Below are positions 8,416 to 31,800 of a DNA stretch of 64,000 bases, one piece after another. The translations under genes were made by a program, and so were the position numbers. This DNA comes from an uncultured delta proteobacterium (GTDB lineage Bacteria; Myxococcota; Myxococcia; Myxococcales; Myxococcaceae). The number at the start of each line of letters is the position of its first letter. Position 1 is the stretch's first letter. Below the pieces are notes generated by a model. That model was not told the origin of the DNA and did not search any database. It saw nothing but the letters and a program-made list of their open reading frames with translations. The DNA lies in assembly GCA_963771175.1 (NCBI GenBank), contig CAVYSY010000040.1, forward strand, positions 352,001 through 416,000. The letters are read 5' to 3'.

Positions 8416-9423
8416 TTACTTCCTCTCCGCGAAGATGTGGTTCCAGATGGTCTCGGGGGCCGGCAGCGGCTCCTCGCGGACCTGACGGGCCATGGCGGCC
8501 ATGTCCTCGGTGTAGCGGTTGCGCAGGTCGTCCATCTCCTTGCGCGAGAGGACGCCGTGCTTCTCCAGGCGCGTCTCGAACTGCGCCAGGCAGTCCTGCT
8601 CGTTGCCCACGAAGTTGGCGCCGGACGCCGAGGAGTGCCCGTACAGGCGCGACACCATGGCCTCCATCAGGAACGGCTTGCGCTCCTTGCGCACGTACTC
8701 CATCGCCTCCTGCAGCTCCTGGTAGGCGTTGATGGGATCGTTGCCGTCGATCGTCTTCGTGCGGATGTTGAAGGCCTTGCCGCGATCCGCCACGTGGGTC
8801 TCGCCGTGCTGGGTGTCCGCCGACGTGGAGATGCCCCACTTGTTGTTGGTGACGATGATGAGGAGGGGCAGCTCGCTGCCCGGGCGCGAGCTCCACACCA
8901 GGCACGAGGCGAAATCGCCCTCGGCCGTGCCCGCGTCACCGCCGGTGACGATGGTGATGCCGTCGCCGCCGTGGCGCTTCTGCGCCAGCGCCGTGCCCGG
9001 GGCCATCACGTACTGGACCTCGATGGGGGAGGACACCGGCGCGATGTTCCACTCGCGCTTGGAGAAGTGGCCCGCGAAGTTGCGGCCGCCGGAGTAGGGG
9101 TCCGCCGCCACGTTCTTCATCTGCCGCAGCGCCCCGATGGGCTCCTCGCCCAGCGCCATCATCGTGGCCGACTGGCGGTAGTGCGCGTGCAGGTAGTCGT
9201 AGGCCGGGCCCTGGCCCTTCTTCATGAGCAGGCCGAGCGGGACGTTGAAGGCCTCCTCGCCGGGGCCGCCGATCCAGAAGTACCCGTGGCCCTGCTTGTA
9301 CATCTGGATGAGGCGCTCTTCGAGGACGCGCGCCTTCACCATCAGGTCGTGCATCCGGACCAGGAGCTCCCGATCGAGTGGGAGCGAGTCTTCTTCGCGA
9401 TTGAGGAGGCGGGGTTTTGGCAC
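8416..9423 (-). CDS. 2-oxoacid (probably 2-oxoisovalerate) dehydrogenase E1 alpha subunit
   Basis: TPP motif GDAGTAEGDF...NNKWGIS and RLYGHS; adjacent to the beta subunit gene. Confidence 0.9.
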   Translation of the reverse strand: MPKPRLLNREEDSLPLDRELLVRMHDLMVKARVLEERLIQMYKQGHGYFWIGGPGEEAFNVPLGLLMKKGQGPAYDYLHAHYRQSATMMALGEEPIGALRQMKNVAADPYSGGRNFAGHFSKREWNIAPVSSPIEVQYVMAPGTALAQKRHGGDGITIVTGGDAGTAEGDFASCLVWSSRPGSELPLLIIVTNNKWGISTSADTQHGETHVADRGKAFNIRTKTIDGNDPINAYQELQEAMEYVRKERKPFLMEAMVSRLYGHSSASGANFVGNEQDCLAQFETRLEKHGVLSRKEMDDLRNRYTEDMAAMARQVREEPLPAPETIWNHIFAERK

Positions 9424-9753
9424 GCGCGTCTCTCTGGGTTGAAATAGGGGGATGAGCGGGGCCCCTCATACCCCAAAGGTGCCCCGAATACTCAAGGGCC
9501 CCGTGCCGGATCCGCCGTCCCGATTTTGCCGCGCTGCGGCGTGCGCAACCCCCTGTTCGCGGCCGACTTGCCGCCTCGTGCCGCACGCCTGGGAAGGTGA
9601 GGCTGCTGGACGTGAGTAGGGTGTTTGATGGTGGGGTTGTCCGAGGACAGCGACGCCAGATGGACTGGCGGCGGGGGCCAATACCCGAAGTGGAGCCGCT
9701 CCCGCACATCCAGGCGGATCCAGCTACCCTCTAGGTTTCTCATGGAGTTGCGC

Positions 9754-9775
9754 TAAAGTGGGTCTCCCCACTTTA
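9754..9775. promoter_or_regulatory. Perfect inverted repeat, candidate operator
   Basis: TAAAGTGGG-TCTC-CCCACTTTA, about 30 bp upstream of the SpoIIE gene in a divergent intergenic region. Confidence 0.5.
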
Positions 9776-9806
9776 CTTATCCGTAGCGCGGTCCCAGCCG
9801 CTCCGG

Positions 9807-11579
9807 GTGTGCCCCTTGTCGAAATCCAACCTGTCGCCCAGACCCGAATCCGCGCCCGAGCCTGAAGCGGATGGTTCCTCCGCGCCGCTCAGTGCGAGTG
9901 ACTTCACTGCCACGCACACGAAGATGGCCGGCTACACCGCCACCTCCCTGTCCCCGCTGCATCCCGAGGCGACCGGCACCATCGTCGCTCCTCTAGAGGC
10001 GGGTGAGTTGCCCGACGTGGCCGCCGTGCGCGGGCTCCGGCTGGATCAGATCCTCCTCTTCACCACGGGTACGCTGCTGGTGCTGGTGGTGGGGCTGCTG
10101 GCCTTCGTGGCCACCGTGTCCAGCAAGAGCCAGTTCGAGGAGACCTCCGAGCGCTTCAAGCTGCGCATCCAGGATCAGGCTCGCGAGCTGGGCCAGACGC
10201 TCAGCCACACCCTGGCCCTCACGTCGGCCACGTCCCTGCGCGACAACAACTACGCCTTCCTCGGCGAGGTGGCGCGCTCCATCATCTCCGACAACCCCAA
10301 CATCCTCCGCGTGCAGATGTACGACGCGGAGGGGTTGCTGGTGGCGGACTCGAAGGAGGACGCGAAGCTGGGCGAGTCCACCGAGCGCAAGCCGGAGCGG
10401 CGCTGGGTGAGCGCGCTGTATGGTGGCAAGCCCATCATCGAGTACCAGGAGCCCATCGACTACGGTGCCCAGATTGGCAAGGGCATGGTCGTCATCAGCT
10501 ACTCGCTGGACGCGCTGCAGACGATGCTGCACGAGCTGGAGACCACGCGCACCGAGGCGCTGCGCCGCAACACCCTCACCATGGCCGGGCTGGGCGTGGG
10601 CTTCGTGCTGCTGGCCGGCATCCTGGTGGCCTTCCAGAGCCGGCGCATCACCCGACCGCTGGGCGTGCTCACCGTCAAGGTGATGCAGCTCGCCGCCGGT
10701 GACCTGAACGCGCGCGCCGAGCCGGCCCGCGGCGCTGGACGCGAGGTGCTCACGCTCGGCGTGGTGTTCAACCACATGGCCGAGCGCATCCGCGTGCTGC
10801 TGGACGACGTGCGCGCCAAGGCGCAGCTCGAGCGCGACGTGTCGCTCGCTCGCACCGTGCAGGAGACGCTGCTGCCGGGCCGCGAGGGCTACCAGGTGGG
10901 GCCCCTGCGCATCGCCGGGCTCGTGGTCACCGCGGATGCCTGCGGCGGTGACTGGTGGACGCGCTCCGCCCTGGACGAGCGGCGCGTGGTGGTGGGCATC
11001 GGCGACGTCACCGGCCACGGTCTGGCCACCGCGCTCGTGGCCACCAGCGCCACCAGCGGTTTCGCCGCCGCGATGACGATGCGCCATCCGGAGGAGATCT
11101 CCGCCCAGGGCCTCATCTCCTCGCTCAACGTCACCCTGGCCAACATCGGCCGGGGCGAGCACCAGATGTCCAGCGCGCTGGCCGTCATGGACGTGCAGAC
11201 GGGCGTCATCGATTACGCGAGCGGCGGTCACCCCAGCCCCATCGTCTACAGCCGCTCCACGCGCCAGGTGGCCTCGCTGCCCGCGCGCGGCGCGCTGCTG
11301 GGCGCCTCGGTGAACTCGCAGTACGCCTCGCGCCAGGCGCAGCTCCGGCCGGGCGACATCATCGTCTGGTACACGGACGGCCTCACCGAGTCGCGCGACG
11401 CCGCCCAGAAGCAGTACGGGACCCAGCGCCTGGCCGCCGCCATCCAGGCCCACGCCCACCTCTCCGCCGAAGCCCTGCGGGACGCCATCCTCGCCGATGC
11501 GCGTGCCTTCAGTGCTGGCCAGCCCGCGCACGATGACATCACCGTCGTCGTCGCCGAATTCGCTCCCGCCTCCCCATGA
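9807..11579 (+). CDS. Membrane sensor: 2 TM + periplasmic domain + HAMP + SpoIIE/PP2C (RsbU-like) phosphatase
   Basis: Two TM segments, HAMP (ITRPL...EV..LGVVFNHMAER), ARTVQETLLP, GGDWW, IGDVTGHG, YTDGLTE, HDDITVV. Exact start uncertain. Confidence 0.9.
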   Translation: MCPLSKSNLSPRPESAPEPEADGSSAPLSASDFTATHTKMAGYTATSLSPLHPEATGTIVAPLEAGELPDVAAVRGLRLDQILLFTTGTLLVLVVGLLAFVATVSSKSQFEETSERFKLRIQDQARELGQTLSHTLALTSATSLRDNNYAFLGEVARSIISDNPNILRVQMYDAEGLLVADSKEDAKLGESTERKPERRWVSALYGGKPIIEYQEPIDYGAQIGKGMVVISYSLDALQTMLHELETTRTEALRRNTLTMAGLGVGFVLLAGILVAFQSRRITRPLGVLTVKVMQLAAGDLNARAEPARGAGREVLTLGVVFNHMAERIRVLLDDVRAKAQLERDVSLARTVQETLLPGREGYQVGPLRIAGLVVTADACGGDWWTRSALDERRVVVGIGDVTGHGLATALVATSATSGFAAAMTMRHPEEISAQGLISSLNVTLANIGRGEHQMSSALAVMDVQTGVIDYASGGHPSPIVYSRSTRQVASLPARGALLGASVNSQYASRQAQLRPGDIIVWYTDGLTESRDAAQKQYGTQRLAAAIQAHAHLSAEALRDAILADARAFSAGQPAHDDITVVVAEFAPASP

Positions 11580-14110
11580 GTCTCATGAGACGTCCTCCTC
11601 GTCCCCTGGTGCGCCGCCTTACGGCGGCGCTGGTCCTCATCAACTCGCTGGCTGGCACGGCCTCGTTCGCCCAGTACCGCCCACCGCCCATGACCGAGTC
11701 CCAGCGGCTCGTGCGTGAGGGTGAGTCGGCCCAGGTGGACGCGAGCTCCGCGGCCACCTCCGGCGACAAGAAGCGCGCCGACGCCAAGTACCGCAAGGCC
11801 CTGGAGCTCTTCGGCAAGGCGCTCGCCGAGGAGCCCGGCTCCGTCGAGGCCGCCGCCGGCCTCGGCGCGGTGGGCGTCGCGCTGCAGGAGCACGCCCTCG
11901 TGGTGGAGAAGGTGGGCCCCGTGTACGCCGCCCACCAGGACTCGCTCGACCTGGCCTACCCGCTGGGCATCTCGCTCTTCAAGCTGCGCCGCTATGACGA
12001 GGCGGTGCCGGTGATGCAGCAGGTGTCCGCCGCCAACAAGCCCGAGCACCTGCTCGTCCACTACTACCTGGGCAACTACTACGTCCTGGGCTCCGCGAGC
12101 GGCGACGAGGCCGTGGTCGAGCTGCAGACGTACCTGGCGCAGCGCCCGGACAAGATCGCCGCCAACGACTACCAGATCCACGAGCTGCTCGGCCGCGCCC
12201 ACCTGATGCGCGGTGACGCGGCGGCGGCGCGGCTCTCCTTCGAGCGCGCCCAGGCGGGCCGCACGGAGTCCGTCTCCATCCAGATGGGCCTGGCCCTGGT
12301 GCTGGAGATGGAGGAGCGGATGGGCGAGGCCATGGCCCTGCTCTCGGGCCTCACCGTGCGCTTCCCCAATGTGCCCGAGGCGAAGGAGCGCCTGGGTCGG
12401 CTGCTGCTGGCCTCGTCGGATCTGCCGGGCGCCGAGGCGCAGGCGCTGGCCCAGGTGAAGCTGGGCAGCACGCCCACCGCGCACATGCTGCTGGGTGACG
12501 TGCGCATGGCCCAGGGCCGTGCCGCCGACGCCGAGGCCGAGTACCGCAAGGTGCTGGAGCTGGCCCCGGGCGACGTGGCCGCGCAGATGGCCGTGGGCCT
12601 CGCGCTGCAGAAGCAGAACCGCAACGAGGAGGCCATTTCCTTCCTGGATGCCGCCGTGCAGTCCGGCGCCGACAGCCTGGAGCTGTGGGCCGCACTCGGC
12701 TCGGCGAACCGCCGCGCCGGCCGCTACCAGCGCGCCGTCGAGGTGCACCGCCGCGTGGTGGAGATGGCGCCCAATCTGGCCTACGGCCACCTGCTGCTCG
12801 GCGCGGACCACTTCGTCACGGGCCAGTGGGACCAGGCCATTGACGACTACGGCAACGCGCTCAAGGCCGAGCCCGAGCACGCCGAGGCCAGCAAGTGGCT
12901 GGCCCGCGCGTTGGCCTTCCGCGCGAGGGAGCGCGCCGGGGCGAACCGGATGGATGACGCCGTGCGCGACCTGCGTCGCGCCTTCGACCTGGAGCGCGAC
13001 GCGGCCATGGCCCGCCGGTTGGGCGCGGCCCTGCTGGAGCAGGGGGCCCACGCCGAGGCCCGCATGGTGCTGGAGCAGGGCGTGAAGTTGCCGGACGTCA
13101 CCTGGCGCGAGCACCTGCTGCTGGGTTACGCGCGGCTGGGCTCGGGCAATGCGCAGGAGGCCCTCGCGGCCTTCGAGCAGGCCGGGCAGATGGCCCCGGA
13201 CGTGGCCTCGCTGTCGGACGTGGCGGCGGGCACCGCGCTGGCGGAGATGGAGCTGGGCCGCACGGACGAGGCGCTCAAGCGGCTGGCCGAGCCGGGCAAT
13301 TCCAAGCGCGCCATCCAGGTGACCAAGGCCAACCTCTCGCGCGCGCACCTGCGCCGGGCCTTCTCCCGCCTGGAGTCCGGTGACGCCGCGGGCGCCCGCC
13401 AGGACGTGGAAGCCTCCGAGCGTGCCGGCATCAACTCGCAGGCCGAGCTGGGCCGCCTGGCGCAGTTCGCCAAGGCGCTCGTGCAGGTCGAGGAGGGGCG
13501 CTTCGCGGACGCCAGCGCGGGCCTCAAGCGCGCGCTCAGCCCGACCCCAGCGTGGAGCCGGCCCAACACCCGCCAGCTCGCCGACGCCTACGTCTTCTAC
13601 CGCCGCGACATGATGCCCCATGCGCGCAGGCTGCTGACGACGGCCGCCAAGCGCTCCATCCCGGAGCAGTCGCAGTGGCAGAACGCCCTCACCAGCGCCC
13701 TCCACCGCCGCGAGGCCGAGCGCGCGTACAACTCCGGCAACATGCGGGCGGCGGAGAAGGCCCTCAAGGCCGCGCTGGCCCTCGCGCCGGACAGCGCCGC
13801 CCTGCAGCACAACCTCGCTTGCGTGGCCTACCGCGGCGGCAAGTCCGCCGACGCCGTGGCCACCTGGAAGCGGCTGGAGGGCGCCGTCCCCCAGGCCACG
13901 CTCAACCTCGGCATCGACGCCCAGGAGCGCCGTCGCAGCGTGGGCGAAGCCGTGGATGCCTACCGCCGCTACGTCGCCACCGGCGGCCCGCGTGCGGCCG
14001 TCGTGCGCGAGTGGAAGGAGCGGCTCCAGATGCTCTACGGCTTGTCCGACCCCGCCCCCACTTCCAACCCCGAGCCCTCCAGCGCCACCGCTTCGGACAC
14101 CACGCCATGA
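11576..14110 (+). CDS. Exported tetratricopeptide-repeat protein
   Basis: Signal-peptide-like N-terminus (ASFA-Q), many TPR-like helical pairs (e.g. AEAEYRKVLELAP, AIDDYGNALKAEP). ATGA overlap with the upstream gene. Confidence 0.85.
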   Translation: MSLMRRPPRPLVRRLTAALVLINSLAGTASFAQYRPPPMTESQRLVREGESAQVDASSAATSGDKKRADAKYRKALELFGKALAEEPGSVEAAAGLGAVGVALQEHALVVEKVGPVYAAHQDSLDLAYPLGISLFKLRRYDEAVPVMQQVSAANKPEHLLVHYYLGNYYVLGSASGDEAVVELQTYLAQRPDKIAANDYQIHELLGRAHLMRGDAAAARLSFERAQAGRTESVSIQMGLALVLEMEERMGEAMALLSGLTVRFPNVPEAKERLGRLLLASSDLPGAEAQALAQVKLGSTPTAHMLLGDVRMAQGRAADAEAEYRKVLELAPGDVAAQMAVGLALQKQNRNEEAISFLDAAVQSGADSLELWAALGSANRRAGRYQRAVEVHRRVVEMAPNLAYGHLLLGADHFVTGQWDQAIDDYGNALKAEPEHAEASKWLARALAFRARERAGANRMDDAVRDLRRAFDLERDAAMARRLGAALLEQGAHAEARMVLEQGVKLPDVTWREHLLLGYARLGSGNAQEALAAFEQAGQMAPDVASLSDVAAGTALAEMELGRTDEALKRLAEPGNSKRAIQVTKANLSRAHLRRAFSRLESGDAAGARQDVEASERAGINSQAELGRLAQFAKALVQVEEGRFADASAGLKRALSPTPAWSRPNTRQLADAYVFYRRDMMPHARRLLTTAAKRSIPEQSQWQNALTSALHRREAERAYNSGNMRAAEKALKAALALAPDSAALQHNLACVAYRGGKSADAVATWKRLEGAVPQATLNLGIDAQERRRSVGEAVDAYRRYVATGGPRAAVVREWKERLQMLYGLSDPAPTSNPEPSSATASDTTP

Positions 14111-15015
14111 AATTCCTTCGCTCGCTCATCCTGGGTCTCGCGCTCGTCGGCGCGGGGGCTCCTGTTGCTGGCGCGGCCCCCAAGAAGGCCACCCTGGGCG
14201 TCTTCCTGCCCACCACCCTCAACGAGGGCCAGCAGCGCTTCCAGTACGCCGAGGCGCTCGCCGAGAAGCTGTCCACGGCGACCGGCCGGCCCACGGCGGC
14301 CAAGAGCTTCGCCCGCTACGAGGACTTCTCGAAGGCCGTCTCCGAGGGCATCGTCGACTTCGCCGTCGTGGACTCCTGGGCGGCCGTGCAGCTCGGCAAC
14401 AAGGCCACCCCGGTGGCGCTCGCGCAGCTGTCCGGTGAGACGTCCCAGCGCTGGGCCATCGTCTCCACCTCGAAGAGCTCGGTGAAGGAGCTGGCCGGCG
14501 CGCGACTCGCCATCGTCAAGGGCGCGGGCGCGACGGATCCCAAGTTCGTCACCAACGTGGTGCTGGCCGGTGACCTGGACGCCAAGAAGCACTTCAAGCT
14601 CACCTCCGTGCCCAACGTGGAGTCCGCCCTCAAGATGCTGGAGGCCAAGGGCGCCGAGGCGGCCCTGGTGCCGCTGACGCACGTGCCGCAGGGCGTCAAG
14701 GTGCTCTACCGCAGCAGCAAGGTGCCGGGCGCCGTGCTCATGGGCATGCGCGGGGATGCGGATGACCTGAAGGAGAACCTGAAGAAGCTCGATGCGGTGG
14801 CCCCCTTCGGGGCCTTCGTCGCCGTGCAGGGCAAGGAGCTGGAGGACTTCGGCAAGCTGCTCCAGCGCGGCCCGCCCCGCCGTCAGCCAATGTTGGTGGA
14901 ATCCGGTTCGCTCAAAGTGGAGACGAAGGCCTTCCTCGATCCCCAGTCGCTCCAGCCCGTTCTGCCCTCCTTCGCCGATGCCCTGGATGTGTCCGCGGAA
15001 CAGCCGGATGACTGA
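14107..15015 (+). CDS. Periplasmic binding protein-like (PhnD/SsuA/transferrin-type fold)
   Basis: Signal peptide MKFLRSLILGLALVGAG; YEDFSKAVSEGIVDFAVVD, SVKELAGARLA, SALKMLEAKGAEAALV. ATGA overlap with the TPR gene. Confidence 0.7.
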   Translation: MKFLRSLILGLALVGAGAPVAGAAPKKATLGVFLPTTLNEGQQRFQYAEALAEKLSTATGRPTAAKSFARYEDFSKAVSEGIVDFAVVDSWAAVQLGNKATPVALAQLSGETSQRWAIVSTSKSSVKELAGARLAIVKGAGATDPKFVTNVVLAGDLDAKKHFKLTSVPNVESALKMLEAKGAEAALVPLTHVPQGVKVLYRSSKVPGAVLMGMRGDADDLKENLKKLDAVAPFGAFVAVQGKELEDFGKLLQRGPPRRQPMLVESGSLKVETKAFLDPQSLQPVLPSFADALDVSAEQPDD

Positions 15016-15038
15016 CGGGGTAGGGGGCGCGACTCCTG

Positions 15039-15066
15039 CTTCATGAAGAGATAGAGTAGTTACAAT
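15039..15066 (+). promoter_or_regulatory. AT-rich candidate internal promoter upstream of the TonB-dependent receptor
   Basis: Palindrome CTTCATGAAG (15039-15048) followed by -10-like TACAAT (15061-15066) in an otherwise GC-rich context. Confidence 0.4.
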
Positions 15067-15186
15067 TCAACAACCCGGGCGTGAGGGACCGTCCGCCAAT
15101 CCTGGCGGCGGAGGCGTGTTGCGGCGGGCAACCACCGGACACGGACTCGAGCGGCTCTCACCCAATTCGTGGGACGTCAGAGAACG

Positions 15187-17508
15187 ATGCACTCGACTCG
15201 AATCGGTTGGCTGCGGAGCAAGGCTCTCTTGGGGCTGATGTGCGGCGTGGTCGCCGGGAGCGCCGCCGCGCAGACGAAGTCCTCCCCGTCGGCCTCATCG
15301 CGGGCCGCCGTCAAGGGAGCCTCGAAGGAGGAGCAGGTCGCCGCGGCGGAGCCGATGACGGATTCTCCGCGCGCGCCCAAGGGGCAGAAGTCGAAGCTGC
15401 CGATGCCGACGCGTGGCGCGGCCCTGCCCGATGCGGCTCCGCCCAGCAACGTGCCGCAGCGCTCGCCCTTCACTGGCCCGGTCAGCACGCGCGCCCTGCC
15501 TCCGCCCTCGAGCCTCGCCGGCCTGGACATCCCGGAGCCGGTCGCCGCCCAGGAGGGGGGCGCCTCCCTCGAGGAGTCCGTGCAGCAGCTCCTGAGCGAG
15601 GTCATGGTCTCCACCGCGTCCAAGCGCAACCAGCGCATCGTGGACGTGCCGATGACGGTGTCCTGGATTTCCGCCGAGGAGCTGGAGGGCACCGGCCAGT
15701 TCACCCTGTGTGAGGCCATCCAGTACTTCCCCGGCATGGAGTGCCGTCGCGGCTCCATGCGCAAGGCGGCGGTGAGCGCGCGCGGCCTGGGCTCCAACTA
15801 CCTGTCCAACCGGCTCCTGCTGCTCAAGGATGGCCGGCCGCTGACGGACCCCTGGACGGGTCAGTTCTACGCGGACGAGACCACGCCGCTGAGCAACCTC
15901 AAGCAGGTGGAAGTCATCCGCGGCCCGGGTTCCTCGCTGTACGGCTCCAACGCCTTCAGCGGCGTCATCAACATCATCGAGCGCCAGCCGTCGGACCTGA
16001 TGAAGGATGGGCGTGACTGGGGCGTGGACGCGCGCCTGCTGGCCGGCCAGAACAGGACCTGGCGGGCGCAGGCCACCGCGGCGGGTCGCGGCGGCCCGGT
16101 GGAGGCGCTGGTCAGCTACTACGGCCTGAGCTCGGACGGCCCGCAGCTCTTCAACGACCCGCAGAAGGGCATCACGGACAAGAACGAGGACTCGCTGGTG
16201 CACCAGGTGAGCGGCAAGGTGCGCGTGAAGAGCGTGTCGCTGGACGCCGACTTCACCAGCGCGGAGATCGGCCGGCCGGGTGGCAAGCAGATCACCACCA
16301 CCGGCAACTGCGGCCGCTGCCACTACACGCCCAACGACGTGGAGCGCGTGCAGAACCTCAACGCGAGCGCGCAGGTGGACCAGCAGGTGACGGACAACCT
16401 GCGGGTGTTCGCCCAGGGCTATGCCTTCTTCAAGCGCCGCACGGTGGATCAGGAGAACATGATCACCGGCGACCTCCAGGCCGCGCTCGGCAAGCGCCGC
16501 CGGCTGGGGGCCGAGGCCCGCGCGCTGCTCTCCCTGGGGGACCTCTCCGTCACCTTCGGCGGTGACTTCAAGAACGACCTGGTCAACAACCAGAACGTCC
16601 TGTCCGGCCTGACCGCGGACGACACCACCCAGGACATCCTCGGTGGCTTCGTGGACGCGGAGTACCGGCCCTTCAGCAAGCTGGTGCTCGGCGCGGGTGC
16701 CCGCTACGACCGGTACATCATCCCGGAGAAGGTCTGGGCCATGCGCACGGACCAGCTCTCCCCGCGCGCCAGCGTGGTGTTCCACGCGCTGCCCGCGCTC
16801 ACCCTGCGCGCCAACTACGGCCGCGCCTTCCGCGCGCCCACGCTCGCGGAGCTGGCCATCAACCAGCAGATGTACGGTGCCACGCTGCTCGGCAGCCCGA
16901 ACCTGCGCGCGGAGACGCTGGACACGGTCGAGGCCTCGGTGGACTTCTGGCCGTTCGACCGCAAGGTCCGCATGACGGGCACGGGCTTCATCAACTACGC
17001 GAAGAACTTCATCAACCAGGAGTACCTCTTCGGCTCCACGTCGCAGTTCAAGAACATCGGCAACGCGCAGGTGCGCGGCTTCGAGCTGGAGGCGGCGGCA
17101 CAGGTGGCCGCCATCAACTCCTCGTTCGACGTGGCCTACCAGTTCCTGGATGCGCGCGCGCTGGCCTTCGATGGCAGCACGTCGGGGCCGCTGGACTACG
17201 CGCCCAAGCACCGCATCTACGCACGCGGCCGGACGAACTTCGGCAAGGTCGCCTTCGCCGAGGTGTACGGCCTGTTCGTGGGTGAGCGCTTCGATCCGGG
17301 CTTCCAGGTGGACTCCACCACCGGCGAGGCCAAGCGCGTGTCGCTGCCCAGCTACGTCACCGCCACCGCGCGCGTGGGAGCCAACATCACCGAGGGCCTG
17401 TCGGTCTCGCTGCTCGGCTCCAACCTCTTCAATGCGCAGTACGAGGAGTCCCACGGCTTCCCGGCCCCCCCGCTGAGCGTCTTCAGCGAGATCAAGTACC
17501 AGTACTGA
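15187..17508 (+). CDS. TonB-dependent receptor
   Basis: Signal peptide, TonB-box-like EVMVST, plug motifs (LLLKDGRP, VEVIRGPGSSLYGSNAFSGVINII), NYGRAFRAPT, NLFNAQY, and a terminal aromatic beta strand EIKYQY. Confidence 0.93.
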   Translation: MHSTRIGWLRSKALLGLMCGVVAGSAAAQTKSSPSASSRAAVKGASKEEQVAAAEPMTDSPRAPKGQKSKLPMPTRGAALPDAAPPSNVPQRSPFTGPVSTRALPPPSSLAGLDIPEPVAAQEGGASLEESVQQLLSEVMVSTASKRNQRIVDVPMTVSWISAEELEGTGQFTLCEAIQYFPGMECRRGSMRKAAVSARGLGSNYLSNRLLLLKDGRPLTDPWTGQFYADETTPLSNLKQVEVIRGPGSSLYGSNAFSGVINIIERQPSDLMKDGRDWGVDARLLAGQNRTWRAQATAAGRGGPVEALVSYYGLSSDGPQLFNDPQKGITDKNEDSLVHQVSGKVRVKSVSLDADFTSAEIGRPGGKQITTTGNCGRCHYTPNDVERVQNLNASAQVDQQVTDNLRVFAQGYAFFKRRTVDQENMITGDLQAALGKRRRLGAEARALLSLGDLSVTFGGDFKNDLVNNQNVLSGLTADDTTQDILGGFVDAEYRPFSKLVLGAGARYDRYIIPEKVWAMRTDQLSPRASVVFHALPALTLRANYGRAFRAPTLAELAINQQMYGATLLGSPNLRAETLDTVEASVDFWPFDRKVRMTGTGFINYAKNFINQEYLFGSTSQFKNIGNAQVRGFELEAAAQVAAINSSFDVAYQFLDARALAFDGSTSGPLDYAPKHRIYARGRTNFGKVAFAEVYGLFVGERFDPGFQVDSTTGEAKRVSLPSYVTATARVGANITEGLSVSLLGSNLFNAQYEESHGFPAPPLSVFSEIKYQY

Positions 17509-17517
17509 GTCGTTCCC

Positions 17518-18375
17518 TTGAGATTCGCCCTACACCCGGAGGCCGCCCCCGGCCTCCAACTCATCGCAGATGTCTCCCTGGCTCCCGCCGTGCTGGAGCA
17601 GGCCGCGCCCGCGCTCGTGCGCAGCGGTCTGCCCCTGGTGTCGGGGGCGGGGAGCTCGCGTGTCCCGGCGCGCGAGTTGGTACTTTTCGACGGTCGCCTG
17701 GGTCCGTCCCACGCCGCCCTGCTGGAGCGGGACCCTCCGGCCCTGCTGCTGGCCACTCGTGAGGCGGGGGGCACCCCGTCCGAGTGGGAGGCTCGGGTGC
17801 TGGCCTCGCTCGTGCGGGGCGAGTCGCTGCTGCCCCCGGACGCGGCGGGGGCGAAGCTGTGGCTCGAGCGGGTGGCTGATCTCAAGGTCGCCTCATCCGA
17901 GGTGGCCGCGCTGGTGGAGTCTTCCGGGGGCAGCCGGAGCGCGGCGAACCTCGCGGCCGACGTGATGCACGAGCTGGCGGCCAACGCGCTGCTGGACGCG
18001 CCGGCGGATGCCCAGGGCACGCCGTACTACGCCCACCAGCGCGATTCGGTGGTGGCCGTGGCCCCCGAGCACGTCTGCCAGGTGTCGATGGCGGTGGGGG
18101 AGGGCGGCATCTACCTGGAGGCGGTGGATCTCTTCGGGCGGTTGACGCCGGAGCCCATCGCGAGGGCGGTCTCCTCGCTGGGCGGGCGAGCGCAAGTGAA
18201 CGCTTCCGGGGGTGGGGCGGGGCTGGGAATGCGCCGCATCCTGGAGCACTGTGATCTGATAGCCGTACGCGTGGTGCCCGGGAAGGAAACCCGGATGCTG
18301 GGCGTGGTCGGTTTCGGGGAGGCGCGACGCCGCGCCGCGTTCCCCAAGTCGTTGCTGTACTTCAAGTCGGAATGA
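17518..18375 (+). CDS. GHKL/HATPase-like protein (RsbW/anti-sigma kinase-like)
   Basis: N-box-like HELAANALLDA, G1-like AVDLFG, G2-like GGGAGLGM; no HisKA H-box. Confidence 0.6.
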   Translation: MRFALHPEAAPGLQLIADVSLAPAVLEQAAPALVRSGLPLVSGAGSSRVPARELVLFDGRLGPSHAALLERDPPALLLATREAGGTPSEWEARVLASLVRGESLLPPDAAGAKLWLERVADLKVASSEVAALVESSGGSRSAANLAADVMHELAANALLDAPADAQGTPYYAHQRDSVVAVAPEHVCQVSMAVGEGGIYLEAVDLFGRLTPEPIARAVSSLGGRAQVNASGGGAGLGMRRILEHCDLIAVRVVPGKETRMLGVVGFGEARRRAAFPKSLLYFKSE

Positions 18376-18386
18376 GGAGCGGGACC

Positions 18387-21300
18387 GTGGAGACGCAGTC
18401 TTCCAACGCCACTATCAGCCGCGTGCGAGTGGGTACCATCAACCACGTTCGCATCGCTGGCGTCATCGACGAGACGTTCCCGCTGACGGCATCCTCTCCG
18501 GACCTCGGTGGGCTCATCATCGTCGACCTGGGCCAGGTGGAGCGCATCAGCTCCTTCGGCGTGCGGCGGTGGATCGAGTTCGCCAGCAAGATGCCCCCCG
18601 GGGGCATTGGCTCTACGTGGTCAACGCGCCACCGGTGATGGTCGACCAGCTCAACATGGTGGAGGGCTTCTCCGGCGTGGCGCGGGTGCTGTCGGTGCTG
18701 GCGCCCTACACGTGCCGCGCCTGCGACGAGGATCGGCTGCGCCTGGTGGATCTGCAGGCGGAGGCCGCGGTCATCGCCGACGGCCGCGCGCCGGAGCACT
18801 CCTGCCCGGTGTGTGCCGGCAAGCTGGAGTTCGCGGATCTCCCCGAGCGAGTTCTTCGACTCACGCCAGGCGCCAGCAGTTCGGCACGGTGGATCCGGTG
18901 GTGATGCGCTACCTGCGCGCCACCACGCCGAGCGCGCCCGCCGCGCTCACCACGCACCTGAAGATCATCCAGGACGACATCACGTTCATCTCCCTGGCCA
19001 GCGAGCTGAAGGGGGACCTGAACGTGCGCCGGCTGGCCTCGGGCCTGGAGGGGCGCGTCGCCTTCGACTTCGCGCACGTCACCAAGGTGGAGCCGGAGGC
19101 CGTCGGCAAGCTGGAGCAGGTGCTGGCCACGGCGGCGCAGGGGGCCAAGGAGGTGGTGCTGTGCCGGCTGCCACCGCCGGCGCTCAATCGCCCTGGCGCG
19201 CTTCACCCGGCCGCTCACCGCGAAGATCGCCACGTTGTGGCTGCCGTGCGAGTGCCGCAACTGCGGCCATGAGCACCAGCAGCGCGCCCTCGCTTCCGAG
19301 TACCTCGCCAAGCTGCGCGCCAACGCCAGCCCGGAGCGCGAGTGCCCCATCTGCGGTGGCACCGCGCGCCTTCCCTCCGTCCCCCAGCTCCTGCCGCTGC
19401 TTGGACGCTCGGCGCTGGTGGACCGGCCGATGGACGACATCGAGGCGCTCGAGCCGCGCGCCCTCAGTCAGTACCTCTTCGGCTCCACCAACGTGGACCC
19501 GAGCGCCAACAAGGGCACCACCTCGGACATCAGCAGCTCCATCGACAACAAGCTGCAGATCATCCGCCGGCTGGGCCAGGGTGGCATGGCGGAGGTGTTC
19601 CTCGCCAAGCAGGTGGGCGTGAAGGGGTTCGAGAAGTTCGTGGTGATGAAGAAGATTCTCCCGCAGTTCGCGGAGAACTCTGAGTTCGTCGACATGCTCT
19701 TCGCCGAGGCGCGGGCCAACGCGCGCCTCACGCACCCCAACGTCGTGCAGACGTTCGACGTGGGCATGTCCGGTGGCGTGGCGTACATCCTCATGGAGTA
19801 CGTCCGCGGCCCGGACCTCAAGAAGCTGCTGAACGAGCTGCGGCGCAAGGGGGTCGCCCTGCCGCTGGAGCACGCGCTGCGCATCGTCGCCGAGACGGCC
19901 GCGGGCCTGCACTACGCGCACAGCTACGTGGATCCCGCCGGCGTGCCCCACCCGGTGGTGCACCGCGACGTCAGCCCGCACAACGTCCTCATCTCGCTCG
20001 ACGGTGCCATCAAGCTGAGCGACTTCGGCATCGCCAAGGTCCAGGGCGAGGAGAACACCCAGGCGGGCGTGCTCAAGGGGAAGATCTCCTACATCTCCCC
20101 GGAGGCGGCGGCCGGCCGGCCCCTGGACGCGCGCAACGACGTGTTCGCCCTGGGCGTGGTGCTCTTCGAGCTGCTCACCGGCCAGCTGCCCTTCAAGCGG
20201 GACCACGACGCGGCCACGCTCAACGCGATCGTTCGCGAGCCGGCGCCCATACCCTCGCAGCTCAGGCCGACCATCCCCCAGGACGTGTCGGACCTCATCC
20301 TGCGTGCCCTGGTGAAGGATCCGGCGCGCCGCACGCCGTCCGCCGCGGCCATGCGCGAGGAGATCGAGGCGGTGATGGCCCACCACCGGCTCAACTCGTC
20401 GCCGGCGGCGGTGGCCCAGTTCTTCAAGGTGACGCTGGGCGAGCGGCTGGCGGAGTTCGGCCCCGTCACCAGCGGCCCTCATACCGGCTCGTACCCGAGT
20501 GCGGGCACGGGCAGCGGTGCTCGTCCGTTGGCCCCGGGAGGAACGGGGGAGATGATGGCACCCGCGGACTCGTCCCTGCGGTCCGGGACGGGCTCGCGGC
20601 CCAGCGCGAGCGGCACCGGGCAGTATGGCGGCTCCGTGCCTCCGCCGCCTCCTTCGGCGGCAGCGCGTCCGGTGGCGCCTCCACCGCCCGCTTCAGGGTT
20701 CCCCACGGAGGATCGTACCGAGGTCTACCGGCCCGTGCAGCAGGGCCTCATCGCCCAAAACGCGATGTCGCCCGAGCCTCCGAGGGCGAACCCGGCGGCC
20801 CCGCCCGCGAGGCCCTCGCAGTCCGGCATGCCTCCCATTCCGCCTCCGCCTCCGCCCACTGTGGCGTCGCGTCCGGCGGTCACGGCTCCGCCCGTTGGTG
20901 CTCAGGGCGTGCCCATGGCGTCGCGGCCCTCCGGCTCCGGGCCGGTGGCGCCGCCCCGTCCGTCCGGGCCCGCGTTGCAGCCGGCGATCCCGGTGGACAC
21001 CCGCACGACGACCCAGACGGTCCCCGCGTCCGTTCCCGTGGCCGCTCCTCCTGCTGCCCACAAGGCTCCGGCGGCCCCCAAGGCTCCGGTCGCGGCGGCT
21101 CCGGCCCCATCCGCACCATTGCCCGCCGCGAAGTCCTCGGCGTCCAAGTGGATCGTCATGGGCATCACCGGGCTCCTGCTGCTCGCCGGTGCCGGCGTGG
21201 TGGTCTCGAAGATGGGCTCCGGGAGCGGCATCGAGGTGATCAACCTCGAGGCGGGTGAGCAACTCTACGTGTCCGGCGTCCAGACGGATCCGAAGAACGT

Positions 21301-21640
21301 GAGTCTGGAAGGCTCCGGCATGTACGTCATCTCCACCGCCATGAACGGCCGCCTGCGCCGCTTCGGGACGACGTCGCCCAAGGATGTCATCGACGTGCGC
21401 ACCCTCCCCGAGGCGATGCCTCAGCAGGGGAGCACGGGGACGGTGCACATTGGCGGAAAGGCTGGCTGCTACGTGAAGGTGGGCACGGAGATGCTCTCCG
21501 GTTCGACGCCGGTGAAGGCCAACATCGAGGCCGGCCGCGAGCTGGAGATCACCGTGACCTGCCCCGGTCAGTCCCTGTGGATTCAGCGGGTGCTGGCGGT
21601 GCCAGGGCAGGAGCTGGAACTCACGCCCACGCCCCAGTAA
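18387..21640 (+). CDS. Membrane Ser/Thr kinase with two N-terminal STAS-like + Zn-ribbon modules; frameshifted near 18605, 18850-18865 and 19185
   Basis: STAS-like IAGVIDE...IVDLGQVERISSFGV; CRAC...CPVC; second STAS-like segment; CRNC...CPIC. Kinase motifs LGQGGMAEV, VMKK, HRDVSPHN, DFG, YISPE. Then a Pro-rich linker, one TM and a beta-rich C-terminus. GTG at 18387 with GAGGAG RBS. Confidence 0.8.
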
Positions 21641-21731
21641 TCATCGTGGAGTCGCTTCGCGGTGCCGTGCTCGGATGTGGTATGCGCGCGTCCGGGCCAG
21701 AAGTGACTGGCCGAAAGAAAGGCTTGGTTCG

Positions 21732-22172
21732 ATGGCATCACTCACCGAGGCACTCACCAGCGGAACCAGGAAGGCGGCGGTCATCGACGACTGCTGCGCC
21801 CTCATCGACGCCGAGGTCGCCGACAAGGGCGGCATCTCGGGCTTCGCCATCAAGGCGGGCTACAGCGCCGTCAAGGGCATCAAGCCCGGCTTCATCCGGC
21901 ATGCCGTGGAGGATCTCCTCCCCGAGTTCGCCAAGGCGCTCGAGCCGCTCTACCAGGAGGCCAAGGCGGGCGGAAAGCCGGTGGCTTCCCACATCACGTC
22001 GAACGCGGCGCGCGCCGCTGACGCCCTCCTCTCCATCACCGACACGAAGGTGCGCCACGCGCAGAGCGGCCTGGTGAAGGGGACGTACGACAAGCTGCGC
22101 GGCACGGCGAAGAAGAACGTCGAGTCCGCCATCCCCCGCATCGGCAAGCTCATCGAGAAGCACGCGAGCTGA
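21732..22172 (+). CDS. Conserved small helical protein (DUF6918-like)
   Basis: LIDAEVADKGGISGFAIKAGY..VKGIKPGFI...ADALLSITD...YDKLRG.AKKNVE pattern; strong codon bias. Confidence 0.65.
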   Translation: MASLTEALTSGTRKAAVIDDCCALIDAEVADKGGISGFAIKAGYSAVKGIKPGFIRHAVEDLLPEFAKALEPLYQEAKAGGKPVASHITSNAARAADALLSITDTKVRHAQSGLVKGTYDKLRGTAKKNVESAIPRIGKLIEKHAS

Positions 22173-22256
22173 GCGCGGCTTTTCTCCGTCCGCGAGTGTA
22201 GCGTCCCGCTCTTGATGGAGCGGGGCGGGCTGGCCGGGAGCAGGACCTCACGCACA

Positions 22257-23096
22257 TCACCGATGAGGATCGCGAGGGGGTCGGCATCGAGTTCTATGCC
22301 GTCGTCCTGGAGAAACGGTAGCGGACCCCTCGGAGGGGGGACCGAAGCCCCCCGGAATGTGCTCGAAGGACACCACGCTCTGCGTCAGTGCCGGGAAGCC
22401 CAGCTCGCGTGAGAGTCGCCAGAGCTGTTGCCGGAACACGGGCTCGGAGGGCACCGGCTCCTGGGTGCCCACCAGGATCAGATTGTTGCTCTCCGCGGTG
22501 CCGCGCAGCAGGGCGCAGTCCTCGAAGGCCCGGGCGAAGGTCTCGATGCGCGAGGCCACGGTTCGGGGATCCTCGAACGCGACGTTGCGCACCGCGACGC
22601 CTCCGGGGGCGAGCCTGTGCCGGACGTCCTCGAAGAAGCGCGAGTTAGTCAGGTGCTCCGGAGCCCCGCTGTCGGAGAAGGCGTCGAGGAGGATGAGATC
22701 GTAGCGAGGCCCCTCTTGTTCCATGAAGCGGGCCCCATCCTCCTCCACGATGCGAAGCCGGGGATCCTCGGGGACGCCGAAGAAGCGATGGGCGACCTCC
22801 ACCACCACCGGATTGAGCTCCACCACCTCCACCACCATCTGGGGCAGGCGCTGGTGCAGCATCAGGGGAAACGAGCCCCCGCCCAGGCCCACCACCAGGG
22901 CGCGGGAGCGGCCCTCGGTGAGCGCGAGCCCGGCGATGGCCCGGCGCACATAGTTCAACGGGATCGCCCGGGGGTCGCTCTTGATGAGGACGCTCTGGCA
23001 AGCCCCCTCGGGGCTGCCGAAGTGGAGCGAGCGCAGGTCGCCCTCGTCCACCACGAACACGGGACCGAAAGGGGATGGGGCCTCGTGGACAACCAT
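22257..23096 (-). CDS. Spermidine synthase-like SAM-dependent methyltransferase
   Basis: LVVGLGGG, VVELNPVV, EDG, YDLILLDAF, LAPGGV. Confidence 0.8.
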   Translation of the reverse strand: MVVHEAPSPFGPVFVVDEGDLRSLHFGSPEGACQSVLIKSDPRAIPLNYVRRAIAGLALTEGRSRALVVGLGGGSFPLMLHQRLPQMVVEVVELNPVVVEVAHRFFGVPEDPRLRIVEEDGARFMEQEGPRYDLILLDAFSDSGAPEHLTNSRFFEDVRHRLAPGGVAVRNVAFEDPRTVASRIETFARAFEDCALLRGTAESNNLILVGTQEPVPSEPVFRQQLWRLSRELGFPALTQSVVSFEHIPGGFGPPSEGSATVSPGRRHRTRCRPPRDPHR

Positions 23097-28666: not shown

Positions 28667-28876
28667 GGGTCCCCTTCTGGATGCGGCCATACCAAACGAT
28701 ATGGATGTTGCACGTGCCACCAGGGCTGAGCCTTTCCGGCAATGCGCGTTTTTCGCTAGGGTAATCACTGCGCAACATTCGGACAGGGTCGCAAGACAAT
28801 GTCTGCAGAGGGGGGGGGAGTCCAGTTCCTCCTTGAAGAACAGTCCAAGCAGTTTTCCAAAAGGAGCAGGTGGGTC

Positions 28877-31800
28877 ATGAAGATCAATTCCGGCAATCCG
28901 GTTCGTCACACGTCCATCACGGGTCCGAAGCACGACTCGAGCGCCTTGATGGCCATGGGCGAGCTGAGCCTGATGTCGCCTCCCATCTCGGGTGAGGCGA
29001 TGAAGAACGCCATCCTCAAGGGCATCGCCGACGGGGACAACAAGGCGGCGTCGGGCGAGTTCAAGGTCGTCCAGCAGTGGGTGGACAAGAACGGGGACAA
29101 GCTGTCGCCCGAGGCGCGGAAGATGTTCGACGTCTACGCGTCCTATGCGGGCCGCGCGCAGGCCGCTGGCCACCCGGGACTGTCCCAGGCCGAGATGAGC
29201 CGGATGCAGGCGGACATGAACCGCACGCTGGTGTCGGGTAACACGGGCTGGGTCCCGCCCACGCACACCGAGATTCCGCCCGGTGGCATCATCCGCCGCG
29301 ACTTCGACGCGAGCGCGGCGGCGGCTCTGGGCAAGCTGGACAAGACGCCGGGGATGATCAACGGCGACGAGATGATGGAAGCCATCAAGGAGGGCATCCA
29401 GGACCCCGATGGCCACGGCGCCTCGTCCGAGTTCAAGCAGTTCATGGACTGGGCGAAGAAGAACCAGAGCCGCCTGTCGCCCGAGGCGAAGCAGGTCCTG
29501 GGCATCTATCAGCGGCACGCCGTCATGGCGAAGCTGACGGGCCAGGAGGGCATCCCCGCCGCTGACTACAAGCGGATGATCGACCAGATGAAGAACGTCC
29601 AGGATGCCAGCGTCGCGTCCACGCTGGGCGAGCTGGACAAGACGCAGGGCCCCATCAACGGGGACCAGATGGCGGCGGCCATCGAGAAGGGCGTGCAGGA
29701 CCTGGACGGCAAGGGCGCCACCGACGAGCTCAAGCAGTTCATGGACTGGGCGAAGAAGAACGAGAGCCGCCTGTCGCCCGAGGCGAAGCAGACGCTGGCC
29801 ATCTACGAGAAGTACGGCAAGGCGGCGCAGGCCAAGGGCCAGAGCGGTATCAGCATCGGTGACTTCAAGAAGATGGTCGCCGAGATGAAGAACGTGAAGG
29901 ACGCCAGCGTCACGGCGGCCCTCGGCGGGCTGGACAAGACGCAGGGCCCCATCAACGGGGACCAGATGGCGGCGGCCATCGAGAAGGGCGTGCAGGACCT
30001 GGACGGCAAGGGCGCCACGGACGAGTTCAAGCAGTTCGCCGACTGGGCCAAGAAGAACGAGTCGCGCCTGTCGCCCGAGGCCAAGGAGGTGCTGGCCACC
30101 TACGAGAAGTACGCCAAGGCGGCCCAGGCCAAGGGGCAGAGCGGCATCTCCGTGGCGGACTTCCAGAAGATGACCGCGGAGATGCACGCGGTGAAGGACG
30201 CCAGCGTGTCGGCGGCCCTGTCCCAGCTCGACCGCGGCTTTGGCCCCATCAACGGGGACCAGATGGCGGCGGCCATCGAGCAGGGCGTGCGCGACCTGGA
30301 CGGCAAGGGCGCCACGGACGAGTTCAAGCAGTTCGCTGACTGGGCGAAGAAGAACGAGTCGCGCCTGTCGCCCGAGGCCAAGGAGGTGCTGGCCACCTAC
30401 GAGAAGTACGCCAAGGCGGCCCAGGCCAAGGGGCAGAGCGGCATCTCGCTGGGTGACTTCTCTCGGATGGTCGCCGAGATGAAGAACGTGAAGGACGCCA
30501 GCGTGTCGGCCGAGCTGTCGCGGTTGGACCGCATGCCGGGCCCCATCAACGGGGACCAGATGGCGGCGGCCATCGAGCGCGGCGTCAGCGACTTCGACGG
30601 CAAGTCGGCCACGGACGAGTTCAAGCAGTTCGCTGACTGGGCCAAGGCCAACCCGAACAAGCTGTCGCCCGAGGCCAAGCAGGTGCTGGGCGTCTACGAG
30701 AAGTACGCCAAGGCGGCCCAGGCCAAGGGCCAGAGCGGCATGGCCCTGGTCGACTTCAAGAAGATGGTCGCCGAGATGAAGAACGTGAAGGACGCGAGCG
30801 TCAGCGCGGCCCTCGGCGAGCTCGACAAGGCCAAGGGCCCCATCAATGGGGACCAGATGGCGGCGGCCATCGAGAAGGGCGTGCGCGACCTGGACGGCAA
30901 GGCGGCCACCGACGAGTTCAAGCAGTTCGCCGACTGGGCGAAGAAGAACGAGTCGCGTCTGTCGCCCGAGGCCAAGCAGGTGCTGGGCGTCTACGAGAAG
31001 TACGCCAAGGCGGCCCAGGCCAAGGGCCAGAGCGGTATCTCCGTGGCGGACTTCAAGAAGATGACCGCGGAGATGAACGCGGTGAAGGACGCCAGCGTGT
31101 CGGCGGCCCTGGCGCAGCTCGACAGCCAGAAGGGCCCCATCAACGGGGACCAGATGGCGGCGGCCATCCAGAAGGGCATGCAGCGACCCGGACAACAAGG
31201 CGGCCACCGACGAGTTCAAGCAGTTCGCCGACTGGGCCAAGAAGAACCAGAGCAAGCTGTCGCCCGAGGCCAAGCAGGTGCTGGGCGTCTACGAGAAGTA
31301 CGCCAAGGCGGCCCAGGCCAAGGGCCAGAGCGGTATCTCCGTGGCGGACTTCAAGAAGATGACCGCGGAGATGCACGCGGTGAAGGACGCCAGCGTGTCG
31401 GCGGCCCTGGCGCAGCTCGACAACCAGAAGGGCCCCATCAACGGGGACCAGATGGCGGCGGCCATCCAGAAGGGCATCAGCGACCCGGACAACAAGGCGG
31501 CCACCGACGAGTTCAAGCAGTTCGCCGACTGGGCCAAGAAGAACCAGAGCAAGCTGTCGCCCGAGGCCAAGCAGGTGCTGGGCGTCTACGAGAAGTACGC
31601 CAAGGCGGCCCAGGCCAAGGGCCAGAGCGGCATCTCCGTGGCGGACTTCAAGAAGATGACCGCGGAGATGAACGCGGTGAAGGACGCGAGCGTCAGCGCG
31701 GCCCTGGCGCAGCTCGACAACCAGAAGGGCCCCATCAACGGGGACCAGATGGCGGCGGCCATCCAGAAGGGCGTGCAGGACCTGGACGGCAAGGCGGCCA

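Follow-up and report, generated by a model that had tools for sequence, protein, structure and literature searches.

Six plus-strand genes between positions 9807 and 21640 of a 64,000-nucleotide stretch of contig CAVYSY010000040.1, from an uncultured delta proteobacterium of the Myxococcaceae, may well encode a partner switch of the Rsb/Sia type that has as its output a Hanks-type Ser/Thr kinase, joined in one protein to the STAS domains of the switch. (We call the whole stretch, which is about 70% G+C, the window, and number all positions within it.) From sequence comparisons and structural models, we give this reading of the cluster, envelope input included, a probability of roughly 0.55. 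We hold its core to be likely, and likelier than the whole: a GHKL kinase would write, and a membrane HAMP-PP2C phosphatase would erase, a phosphate on the first STAS domain (STAS1), and so control the kinase.

The six genes encode, in order, a HAMP-SpoIIE phosphatase (9807..11579; the start is unsure, either GTG 9807 or an ATG 38 codons downstream), an 844-residue TPR protein (11576..14110), a 302-residue PhnD-like binding protein (14107..15015), a TonB-dependent receptor (15187..17508; ATG 15187 is the likely start, the open reading frame list giving GTG 15169), a 285-residue GHKL protein (17518..18375, start codon TTG 17518) and the Ser/Thr kinase (18372..21640, of which the longest open reading frame in the window covers only 19235-21640). 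An earlier note on this DNA had described six co-directional genes, and these do fill the interval, but its title wrongly put the receptor first. Both ATGA overlaps that it had reported, at 11576-11579 and 14107-14110, can be read directly in the sequence. Of the gaps of about 10 bp that it had placed between the last three genes, the first stands (9 bp from the receptor stop at 17508 to TTG 17518), whereas the 285-residue protein and kinase genes instead overlap by ATGA at 18372-18375. The sole sizeable intergenic gap, about 170 bp, separates the binding-protein stop at 15015 from the likely receptor ATG at 15187. Pfam largely agreed with the domain content proposed for the phosphatase, TPR protein, binding protein, receptor and kinase.

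For the 285-residue protein, the fold had to come from structure: Pfam gave no family, NCBIfam likewise nothing useful, and the names among the matches listed for it are all "hypothetical protein". The GHKL fold that the earlier note had claimed for 17518-18375 was borne out by an AlphaFold model built from an alignment (predicted local distance difference test score, pLDDT, 87.2; predicted template modelling score 0.88). Residues 105-268 form the GHKL domain, residues 1-105 form a separate alpha/beta domain, and hydropathy indicates no transmembrane segment, as for a cytoplasmic protein. By VIA-align, the GHKL domain is closest to SpoIIAB (Z 12.3, root-mean-square deviation 2.9, 134 residues aligned), followed by UsfX (11.3), SiaB (10.6), RsbW (10.2), LvrC (9.6) and the RsbW domain of Rv1364c (9.5); beyond these six partner-switch kinases and anti-sigma factors, the next matches, which include histidine-kinase CA domains, reach Z values of at most 5.7. 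Foldseek also returned SpoIIAB (E 1.1e-05). By its modelled fold, then, the protein is a diverged RsbW/SpoIIAB-type kinase, with catalysis predicted. Its motifs are consistent with ATP binding: E152, N156, D204-x-F-G and G231-G-G-A-G-L-G237 are invariant in 37/37 GHKL sequences, and we take E152...N156 to be the N-box and G231-G237 the glycine-rich ATP lid. The idea that domain 1-105 is itself STAS-like was dropped (hhalign probability against the STAS1 unit only 0.6).

Homologs of this protein number 146 at E ≤0.001, including MXAN_4558 of M. xanthus, and occur in Archangium, Vitiosangium, Melittangium, Hyalangium, Stigmatella, Corallococcus and Myxococcus. A wider exhaustive search yielded 666 representative GHKL relatives at the same threshold. 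When 30 distant relatives were scanned with Pfam, seven matched HATPase_c_2 at E ≤0.01 and only one (P0205) reached the family cut-off (27.5 vs 27.4 bits).

The kinase consists of two STAS domains, each followed by a four-cysteine, zinc-ribbon-like unit, a Hanks domain (~19556-20353), a Pro-rich linker, a single transmembrane segment (~21146-21214) and a periplasmic C-terminal domain of ~140 residues (21215-21637), the last two placed by a hydropathy scan. The Hanks assignment is firm: Pkinase scores 144.8 bits against a cut-off of 31.7 (E 4.3e-42), and the catalytic Lys (VMKK), HRD, DFG and SPE motifs are all kept. We examined the fold of the N-terminus on an intact ortholog (P0001, from genome G006), whose pieces are 88-92% identical to those of the window and whose residue numbers we use. 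In the model of its residues 1-345 (pLDDT 85.1), STAS2 (model residues 190-288) matches RsbR, RsbS and 3t6o at Z 10.3, RsbV at 9.8, SpoIIAA at 9.4 and SiaC at 7.1. The STAS2 unit (18880..19400) is thus placed by these matches and by its alignment with STAS1, and the STAS1 unit (18372..18880) by its invariant columns and its homology to the STAS2 unit, which is strong (hhalign probability 98.6, E 7.8e-16, 139 columns); through that sequence homology STAS1 is a STAS domain. The earlier note's proposal of a STAS-like kinase N-terminus was therefore sound. A precomputed PF01740 match is present on some kinase orthologs; a STAS1 profile run against PDB sequences returned only zinc-finger noise and one STAS chain at E 0.95.

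STAS1 carries the motif R-I-S60-S61-F-G-V-R, in which Ser61 is invariant in 25/25 orthologs and Ser60 is present in at least 90%. In the P0001 model, Ser61 lies between strand 47-59 and helix 61-72. As a conserved phosphorylatable residue where the second helix begins, it is the candidate phospho-acceptor of STAS1, at what we presume to be the place of the phosphorylated Ser of SpoIIAA (Ser58) and RsbV. The hhalign alignment shows that STAS2 has Glu-Pro where STAS1 has Ser-Ser. The invariant cysteines are C115, C118, C145 and C148 in the STAS1 unit and C294, C297, C324 and C327 in the STAS2 unit. Archangium genomes also encode a second, shorter kinase (768-904 aa; P0291, P0292, P0296, P0300, P0301) with an N-terminus 83-86% identical to the region of STAS domains and zinc-ribbon-like units (STAS-Zn); G006 nonetheless has only one GHKL match. 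No second STAS-Zn kinase paralog was found in the present genome, which is ~82% complete.

The phosphatase is an evident member of the SpoIIE/RsbU-type PP2C group, with a full-length SpoIIE domain above the Pfam cut-off (142.9 bits vs 25, E 1.5e-41, profile positions 1-191 of 192) and a HAMP domain (38.2 bits vs 25, E 1.9e-09). A hydropathy scan suggests an N-terminal tail, a first transmembrane segment (residues 79-110), a periplasmic domain of ~145 residues and a second transmembrane segment (255-279), and the cytoplasmic part comprises HAMP (278-329) and the SpoIIE-type PP2C domain (390-585). The NCBIfam SiaA model matches it (E 1.2e-15) with 57 bits, far under the equivalog cut-off of 700. 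It is the one strong SpoIIE match in the whole genome.

Several results speak against this assembly of parts into a phospho-switch. HATPase_c_2 was found in 0/37 aligned orthologs of the 285-residue protein and HATPase_c in 1/37 (E 0.12), and the GHKL family profile had 0 matches among PDB sequences at E up to 1. On the kinase side, P0001 scores 18.7 bits with Pfam STAS (residues 49-96) and 22.6 bits with STAS_2 (residues 222-275), short of the respective cut-offs of 22.6 and 29.2. For the two periplasmic regions the nearest Atlas clusters are leads only: PEGA (score 0.90) for the kinase C-terminus and sCache_3_2 (0.95) for the phosphatase. Moreover, other STAS proteins in the genome could be targets of the phosphatase; genome scans with HATPase_c_2 and STAS, in which histidine kinases and STAS proteins of the transporter or MlaB kind prevailed, did not narrow down its substrates. 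Finally, UsfX, an anti-sigma factor that is not known to act as a kinase, stands among the best fold matches, so that fold alone is no proof of catalysis.

We considered that the GHKL protein might accordingly be a non-catalytic binder, a UsfX-like anti-kinase, or might act elsewhere, and that the STAS units might be a docking site or scaffold with no phospho-cycle. The UsfX match (Z 11.3), the failure of any Pfam kinase family to reach its cut-off and the lack of a phosphorylatable residue at the STAS2 site would all fit. Against it stand the ATP-binding motif positions, invariant in 37/37 sequences, and the STAS1 Ser, invariant in 25/25 orthologs and 15/15 paralogous units, and the SpoIIE phosphatase linked in most loci makes sense only if something is phosphorylated. 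We regard this possibility as improbable and retain a phospho-switch as the better account of the core.

In the window itself the kinase gene is broken, which the earlier note had overlooked. Three-frame translation spreads its N-terminal 280 codons over three frames, and alignment with three orthologs locates four 1-base indels between 18607 and 19189 (plus strand): one base is missing near 18607-18610 and one is extra at each of 18845, 18860-18862 and 19189. We think it likely that these are assembly errors, because orthologs and near-identical contigs are intact, another gene is likewise broken and the assembly is incomplete. Specifically, the kinase is one open reading frame in 6/6 same-genus complete genomes fetched; contigs of three public runs (X1, X2, X3), 95-99% alike and covering the whole stretch, lack all four indels, and a fourth run (X6) lacks those in the part it covers; none of these runs is of the strain of the window. 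A DEAD-box helicase/DUF3516 gene at window positions 1-2510 (plus strand; 856 aa in G006) is also split, by at least four frame changes. The assembly (9.8 Mb, 58 contigs) is 81.66% complete, compared with 96-100% for its congeners but one, at 73%.

If the indels were real, the kinase would be a true pseudogene in this strain, the module would be decaying and the switch would lack its output here, which would tell against our interpretation. Consistent with this, all four indels fall within ~600 bp with just one in a homopolymer run, and no public run contains the exact sequence of the window (best word share 0.63). Decay is harder to reconcile with the translated pieces, which are 85-95% identical to orthologs in each frame segment, with the breakage in the same manner of the conserved helicase gene, with the quality of the assembly, with the intact X1-X3 contigs and with the condition of the other window genes, those compared with syntenic G006 open reading frames, including the five other cluster genes, being intact. 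A pseudogene therefore seems unlikely.

The earlier note had suggested examining gene-neighbourhood conservation across Myxococcota, and the six genes do co-occur. We scanned one genome per species, 58 loci in all. The GHKL gene is immediately followed by the kinase N-terminus in 53/53 loci with 1.1 kb or more of downstream sequence and is preceded by the receptor in 45/50, and all six genes are colinear in 25/28 loci with enough flank and in 6/6 same-genus complete genomes. Conservation of the kinase extends over Myxococcus, Corallococcus, Pyxidicoccus, Hyalangium and Archangium. The components of a partner switch, namely a phosphatase, a GHKL kinase and a STAS protein, are thus encoded together, as they are in the paralogous loci described below; as to a sigma factor as the alternative partner, no sigma-factor family was found in the six genes and ten flanking open reading frames scanned with Pfam, which agrees with the note's statement that sigma factors and ATP-binding cassette (ABC) permeases or ATPases are absent.

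Exceptions to colinearity are informative. The phosphatase, TPR and binding-protein genes are divergent from the receptor, GHKL and kinase genes in one locus (L075), lie on a different contig in G225 and are ~9 kb away in G233, where no receptor stands beside the GHKL gene. These split loci point to two stable units, phosphatase-TPR-binding protein and receptor-GHKL-kinase. One further locus, L076, has a HAMP-SpoIIE gene immediately ahead of the GHKL gene. In G303 (L127, G303:C32, 6546-11983, on the same contig as L071) and in L074 (4444-9851), the phosphatase is a hybrid of ~1,390 aa, HAMP-HisKA-HATPase-RECx4-SpoIIE, and after it come, in this order, genes for an SBP_bac_8 binding protein, the GHKL protein and the STAS-kinase. 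In these two loci the partner-switch phosphatase thus appears, from the domain order, to be fed by a two-component phosphorelay. The SBP_bac_8 protein is unrelated to PhnD, yet occupies the slot between phosphatase and GHKL gene. Sequence comparison indicates, therefore, that the phosphatase has at least twice gained a periplasmic binding protein as its neighbour.

We also surveyed 301 Myxococcota genomes, including the unpublished G224. Ortholog-level GHKL proteins occur in 67/301, all of one family, and the binding protein in 65/301, always as a single match. Both are present in 64 genomes, the GHKL protein only in three (G020, G239, G303), the binding protein only in one (G289, which has a weak GHKL-domain match) and neither in 233; three genomes (G010, G208, G232) jointly lack both genes in genera that usually have them. 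Three points here detract from the case for a connected system. Co-occurrence within one clade of one family is weak evidence, since kinship explains much of it; the receptor is absent beside the GHKL gene in 5/50 loci and in G233; and the identical layout of G303 and L074 probably reflects one event.

The recurrence of the trio of GHKL, STAS-Zn and SpoIIE proteins outside the cluster is the strongest argument that the three work together. In eight loci of other Myxococcota families, GHKL paralogs stand beside stand-alone STAS-Zn proteins of 140-170 aa, and the same loci encode double STAS-Zn kinases, STAS-Zn-TPR and double STAS-Zn-PDZ proteins, and GAF- or HAMP-SpoIIE phosphatases. The Ser is kept in 15/15 STAS1-type units of these loci, in the context R-x-[SNT]-S-x-G-V, and 2/2 STAS2-type units have Asp-Pro in its place. 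GHKL domains also occur fused, as dCache-HAMP-GAF-SpoIIE-GHKL (P0245), STAS_2-GHKL (P0142), cNMP-binding-GHKL (P0253) and GHKL-PilZ (P0244). P0174 is another of the distant GHKL relatives with fusions, for which the partners listed include a receiver-like domain. Arrays in three loci of other families (L116, 1799-11610; L118, 2073-11597; L111, 4706-9613) contain GAF- or HAMP-SpoIIE phosphatases, GHKL paralogs, stand-alone STAS-Zn proteins and several STAS-Zn kinases, together with STAS-Zn-TPR and STAS-Zn-PDZ fusions and a PilZ-FHA protein.

Three of the six gene products are predicted to reside in the envelope. The TPR protein (TPR_16, 4.6e-40, plus many further TPR families in Pfam) is predicted to be exported, as its first residues read like a signal sequence. 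The binding protein matches PF12974 (Phosphonate-bd; 42.3 bits vs a cut-off of 27, E 7.5e-11), is likewise predicted to be exported from its hydrophobic N-terminus in a hydropathy scan, and is single-copy in this genome; no ABC permease or ATPase lies beside it in the cluster or the scanned flanks. An identification with the sterol carrier BstB was dropped (NCBIfam 26 bits vs a cut-off of 350), and this weak match with the adjacent TPR gene is too weak for reading the two as a lipid-carrier pair. A source-data table of PMC6791715 labels the binding-protein ortholog of M. xanthus, MXAN_4560, as "secondary metabolite cluster (lantipeptide)". The receptor has a Plug (69.7 bits, residues 158-266) and a TonB_dep_Rec_b-barrel match (137.7 bits), a barrel of the 22-strand type, preceded by a signal-like N-terminus and an extension of ~110 residues before the plug, rich in Pro, Ser and Ala. 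As a further point against a signalling role, Pfam found only Plug and barrel at E ≤0.01 and no STN domain before the plug. Lacking the FecA-type signalling domain, the receptor could support a trans-envelope route only as import followed by periplasmic sensing, not as a conformational relay.

Linkage, co-occurrence and the SBP_bac_8 slot of G303 and L074 lead us to suggest, tentatively and at somewhat less than even odds, that receptor, binding protein and TPR protein supply the signal. The fullest version, a whole-envelope chain from the receptor through the binding and TPR proteins to the phosphatase and the STAS-kinase, as one member of an undescribed Myxococcota-wide GHKL/STAS-Zn/SpoIIE toolkit, is slightly more doubtful again on the sequence evidence. 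Instead, the switch might comprise only phosphatase, GHKL protein and STAS-kinase, with the envelope genes sharing the operon for an unrelated job in uptake, trafficking or export, and phosphatase and kinase sensing through their own periplasmic domains. We note in its favor that L067, L068 and L076 have the core trio or pair but not the three envelope genes, that the two units are on different contigs in G225 and separated in G233, and that the receptor has no signalling domain; its M. xanthus counterpart, MXAN_4559, is a predicted outer-membrane beta-barrel (PMC3222651) and, as with other transporters, turned up in fractions of outer-membrane vesicles (PMC4158809). An unrelated job fits poorly, however, with a binding protein that is single-copy with no ABC partner nearby, that occurs in 64/67 genomes with an orthologous GHKL protein compared with 1/234 others (G289), that stays with the phosphatase gene in split clusters and that is replaced by a non-homologous binding protein in the same slot in G303 and L074. 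We judge such a separation of envelope and switch to be rather unlikely, and keep an envelope-linked switch as the working interpretation.

The mechanism that we propose would run as follows; we infer each step of binding or phosphotransfer, as well as the ligand and the sign of the effect on the kinase, from folds, motifs, linkage, co-occurrence and expression. A ligand would be admitted by the TonB receptor, whose gene stays with those of the GHKL protein and the kinase. The PhnD-like binding protein and the TPR protein, always linked to the phosphatase gene, would be periplasmic co-sensors of the phosphatase. The 285-residue GHKL protein would bind STAS1 of the kinase and phosphorylate its conserved Ser (the Ser61 region), and the HAMP-SpoIIE phosphatase would remove this phosphate upon stimulation of its periplasmic domain. 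The phospho-state of STAS1, read against the acidic, non-phosphorylatable STAS2, would then set kinase activity or partner binding in cis, which would parallel the control of SiaD by SiaC in trans.

Genes flanking the cluster encode PEP carboxylase, E1 dehydrogenase subunits, a DUF6918 protein, a methyltransferase and a PAS histidine kinase. The DUF6918 gene (21675-22172, plus strand) begins 35 bp past the kinase stop and probably lies outside the cluster, since synteny with G006 ends just after the kinase. A scan of 9400-22300 returned 0 promoter-like sites and four terminator-like sites, which is the chance level, and is uninformative on operon structure. Further along, a plus-strand open reading frame of 1,484 aa (35018-39472) encodes, close to the N-terminus, an eCIS_core domain (PF13699, 85.8 bits). 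Another of 1,092 aa (28799-32077, plus strand) overlaps the strongest AT skew of the window (0.36 at 30001-32000); with only a partial HTH_63 match above cut-off, it is probably a low-complexity or coiled-coil protein.

Parts of this system have been noticed before. The 2010 phosphatome study (PMC2887360) lists MXAN_4562 (HAMP plus SpoIIE) as the only SpoIIE-like phosphatase of M. xanthus, with orthologs sce8427 and adeh0917, and remarks on STAS domains fused to eukaryotic-like kinases in Sorangium; in its available text it proposes no mechanism and leaves MXAN_4558 unrecognised. Source data 2 to Table 1 of PMC6791715 show MXAN_4557-4562 arranged head to tail, neighbours being -4 to 23 bp apart, and all six are expressed, at ~30-95 reads per kilobase per million through 96 h of development, with no strong regulation. 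Partner switches that control enzymes are also known, namely SiaABC-SiaD, HsbR/HsbA-HsbD and BgrUVW-BgrR, with SiaA a two-transmembrane HAMP-PP2C protein (PMC7647112), and a partner-switching-like module controlling a glycosyltransferase was described in Anabaena in 2026 (PMC13555669). A PF12974 binding protein, AioX, signals to the membrane sensor AioS (PMC8050422). The earlier note's view that the architecture is undescribed was thus overstated, given the STAS-kinase fusions (PMC2887360) and the enzyme-controlling switches (PMC7647112). The principle and all of the folds are already known. For the fused Hanks-kinase output, the duplicated STAS-Zn units, the extra domain of the GHKL protein and the linked envelope genes, no description was found in the searchable literature; nor was any study of MXAN_4557, of MXAN_4558 or of a STAS-kinase switch, in a search that was short on subscription journals.

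Each myxobacterium encodes about a hundred eukaryotic-like kinases, most of which have, to our knowledge, neither a known input nor a known means of control. The cluster offers a testable control mechanism for one conserved kinase (MXAN_4557 in the genetically tractable M. xanthus), a substrate candidate for the only SpoIIE-type phosphatase of that organism and a proposed function for the "hypothetical" MXAN_4558 family, which lies outside all sequence families. If the interpretation is correct, partner switching would extend to a new class of output, and the STAS-Zn units of the toolkit would be fused to outputs as varied as Ser/Thr kinases, TPR and PDZ proteins. A TonB receptor with a transporter-less binding protein would be a new signal route into Ser/Thr phosphorylation networks, and partner switching and eukaryotic-like kinase signalling, two large bacterial Ser/Thr systems, would be wired in series.

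The cluster can be compared with several known systems. With FecA-type transducers it shares an outer-membrane TonB receptor encoded with a signalling system, but its receptor has no STN domain and there is no anti-sigma/extracytoplasmic-function (ECF) sigma pair, so that any signalling would go via an imported ligand and the periplasmic proteins. AioX-AioS is similar in pairing a transporter-less PF12974 protein with a membrane sensor that has an sCache-like periplasmic domain (PMC8050422), a feature for which the sCache_3_2 match of the cluster is a lead only; the presumed receiver in the cluster is a PP2C phosphatase rather than a histidine kinase. Rv1364c of Mycobacterium tuberculosis likewise fuses RsbU-, RsbW- and RsbV-like parts (RsbW domain, Z 9.5), whereas in the cluster the fusion partner is a Hanks kinase, and GHKL protein and phosphatase are separate proteins. 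The Bacillus systems RsbU/RsbV/RsbW and SpoIIE/SpoIIAA/SpoIIAB use the same three folds, PP2C, GHKL and STAS, and the cluster resembles them further in the conserved Ser at the strand-helix junction of STAS1; it differs in having no sigma factor in the cluster and its flanks, in the fusion of STAS to a kinase and in sequences too diverged for Pfam cut-offs.

A further close parallel is with SiaABC-SiaD of Pseudomonas aeruginosa. Its membrane phosphatase has two transmembrane segments, HAMP and PP2C, as does that of the cluster (PMC7647112); the 285-residue model matches its small GHKL-type kinase, SiaB (Z 10.6), and the STAS2 model its STAS-like phospho-protein, SiaC (Z 7.1); and its output is an enzyme, a diguanylate cyclase, not a sigma factor. 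In the cluster, by contrast, the STAS domain is duplicated, equipped with four-cysteine units and fused to the Hanks kinase that is the output; a Ser is the candidate acceptor, in contrast to Thr68 of SiaC; an additional N-terminal domain is present in the GHKL protein; and the switch is co-encoded with a receptor, a binding protein and a TPR protein.

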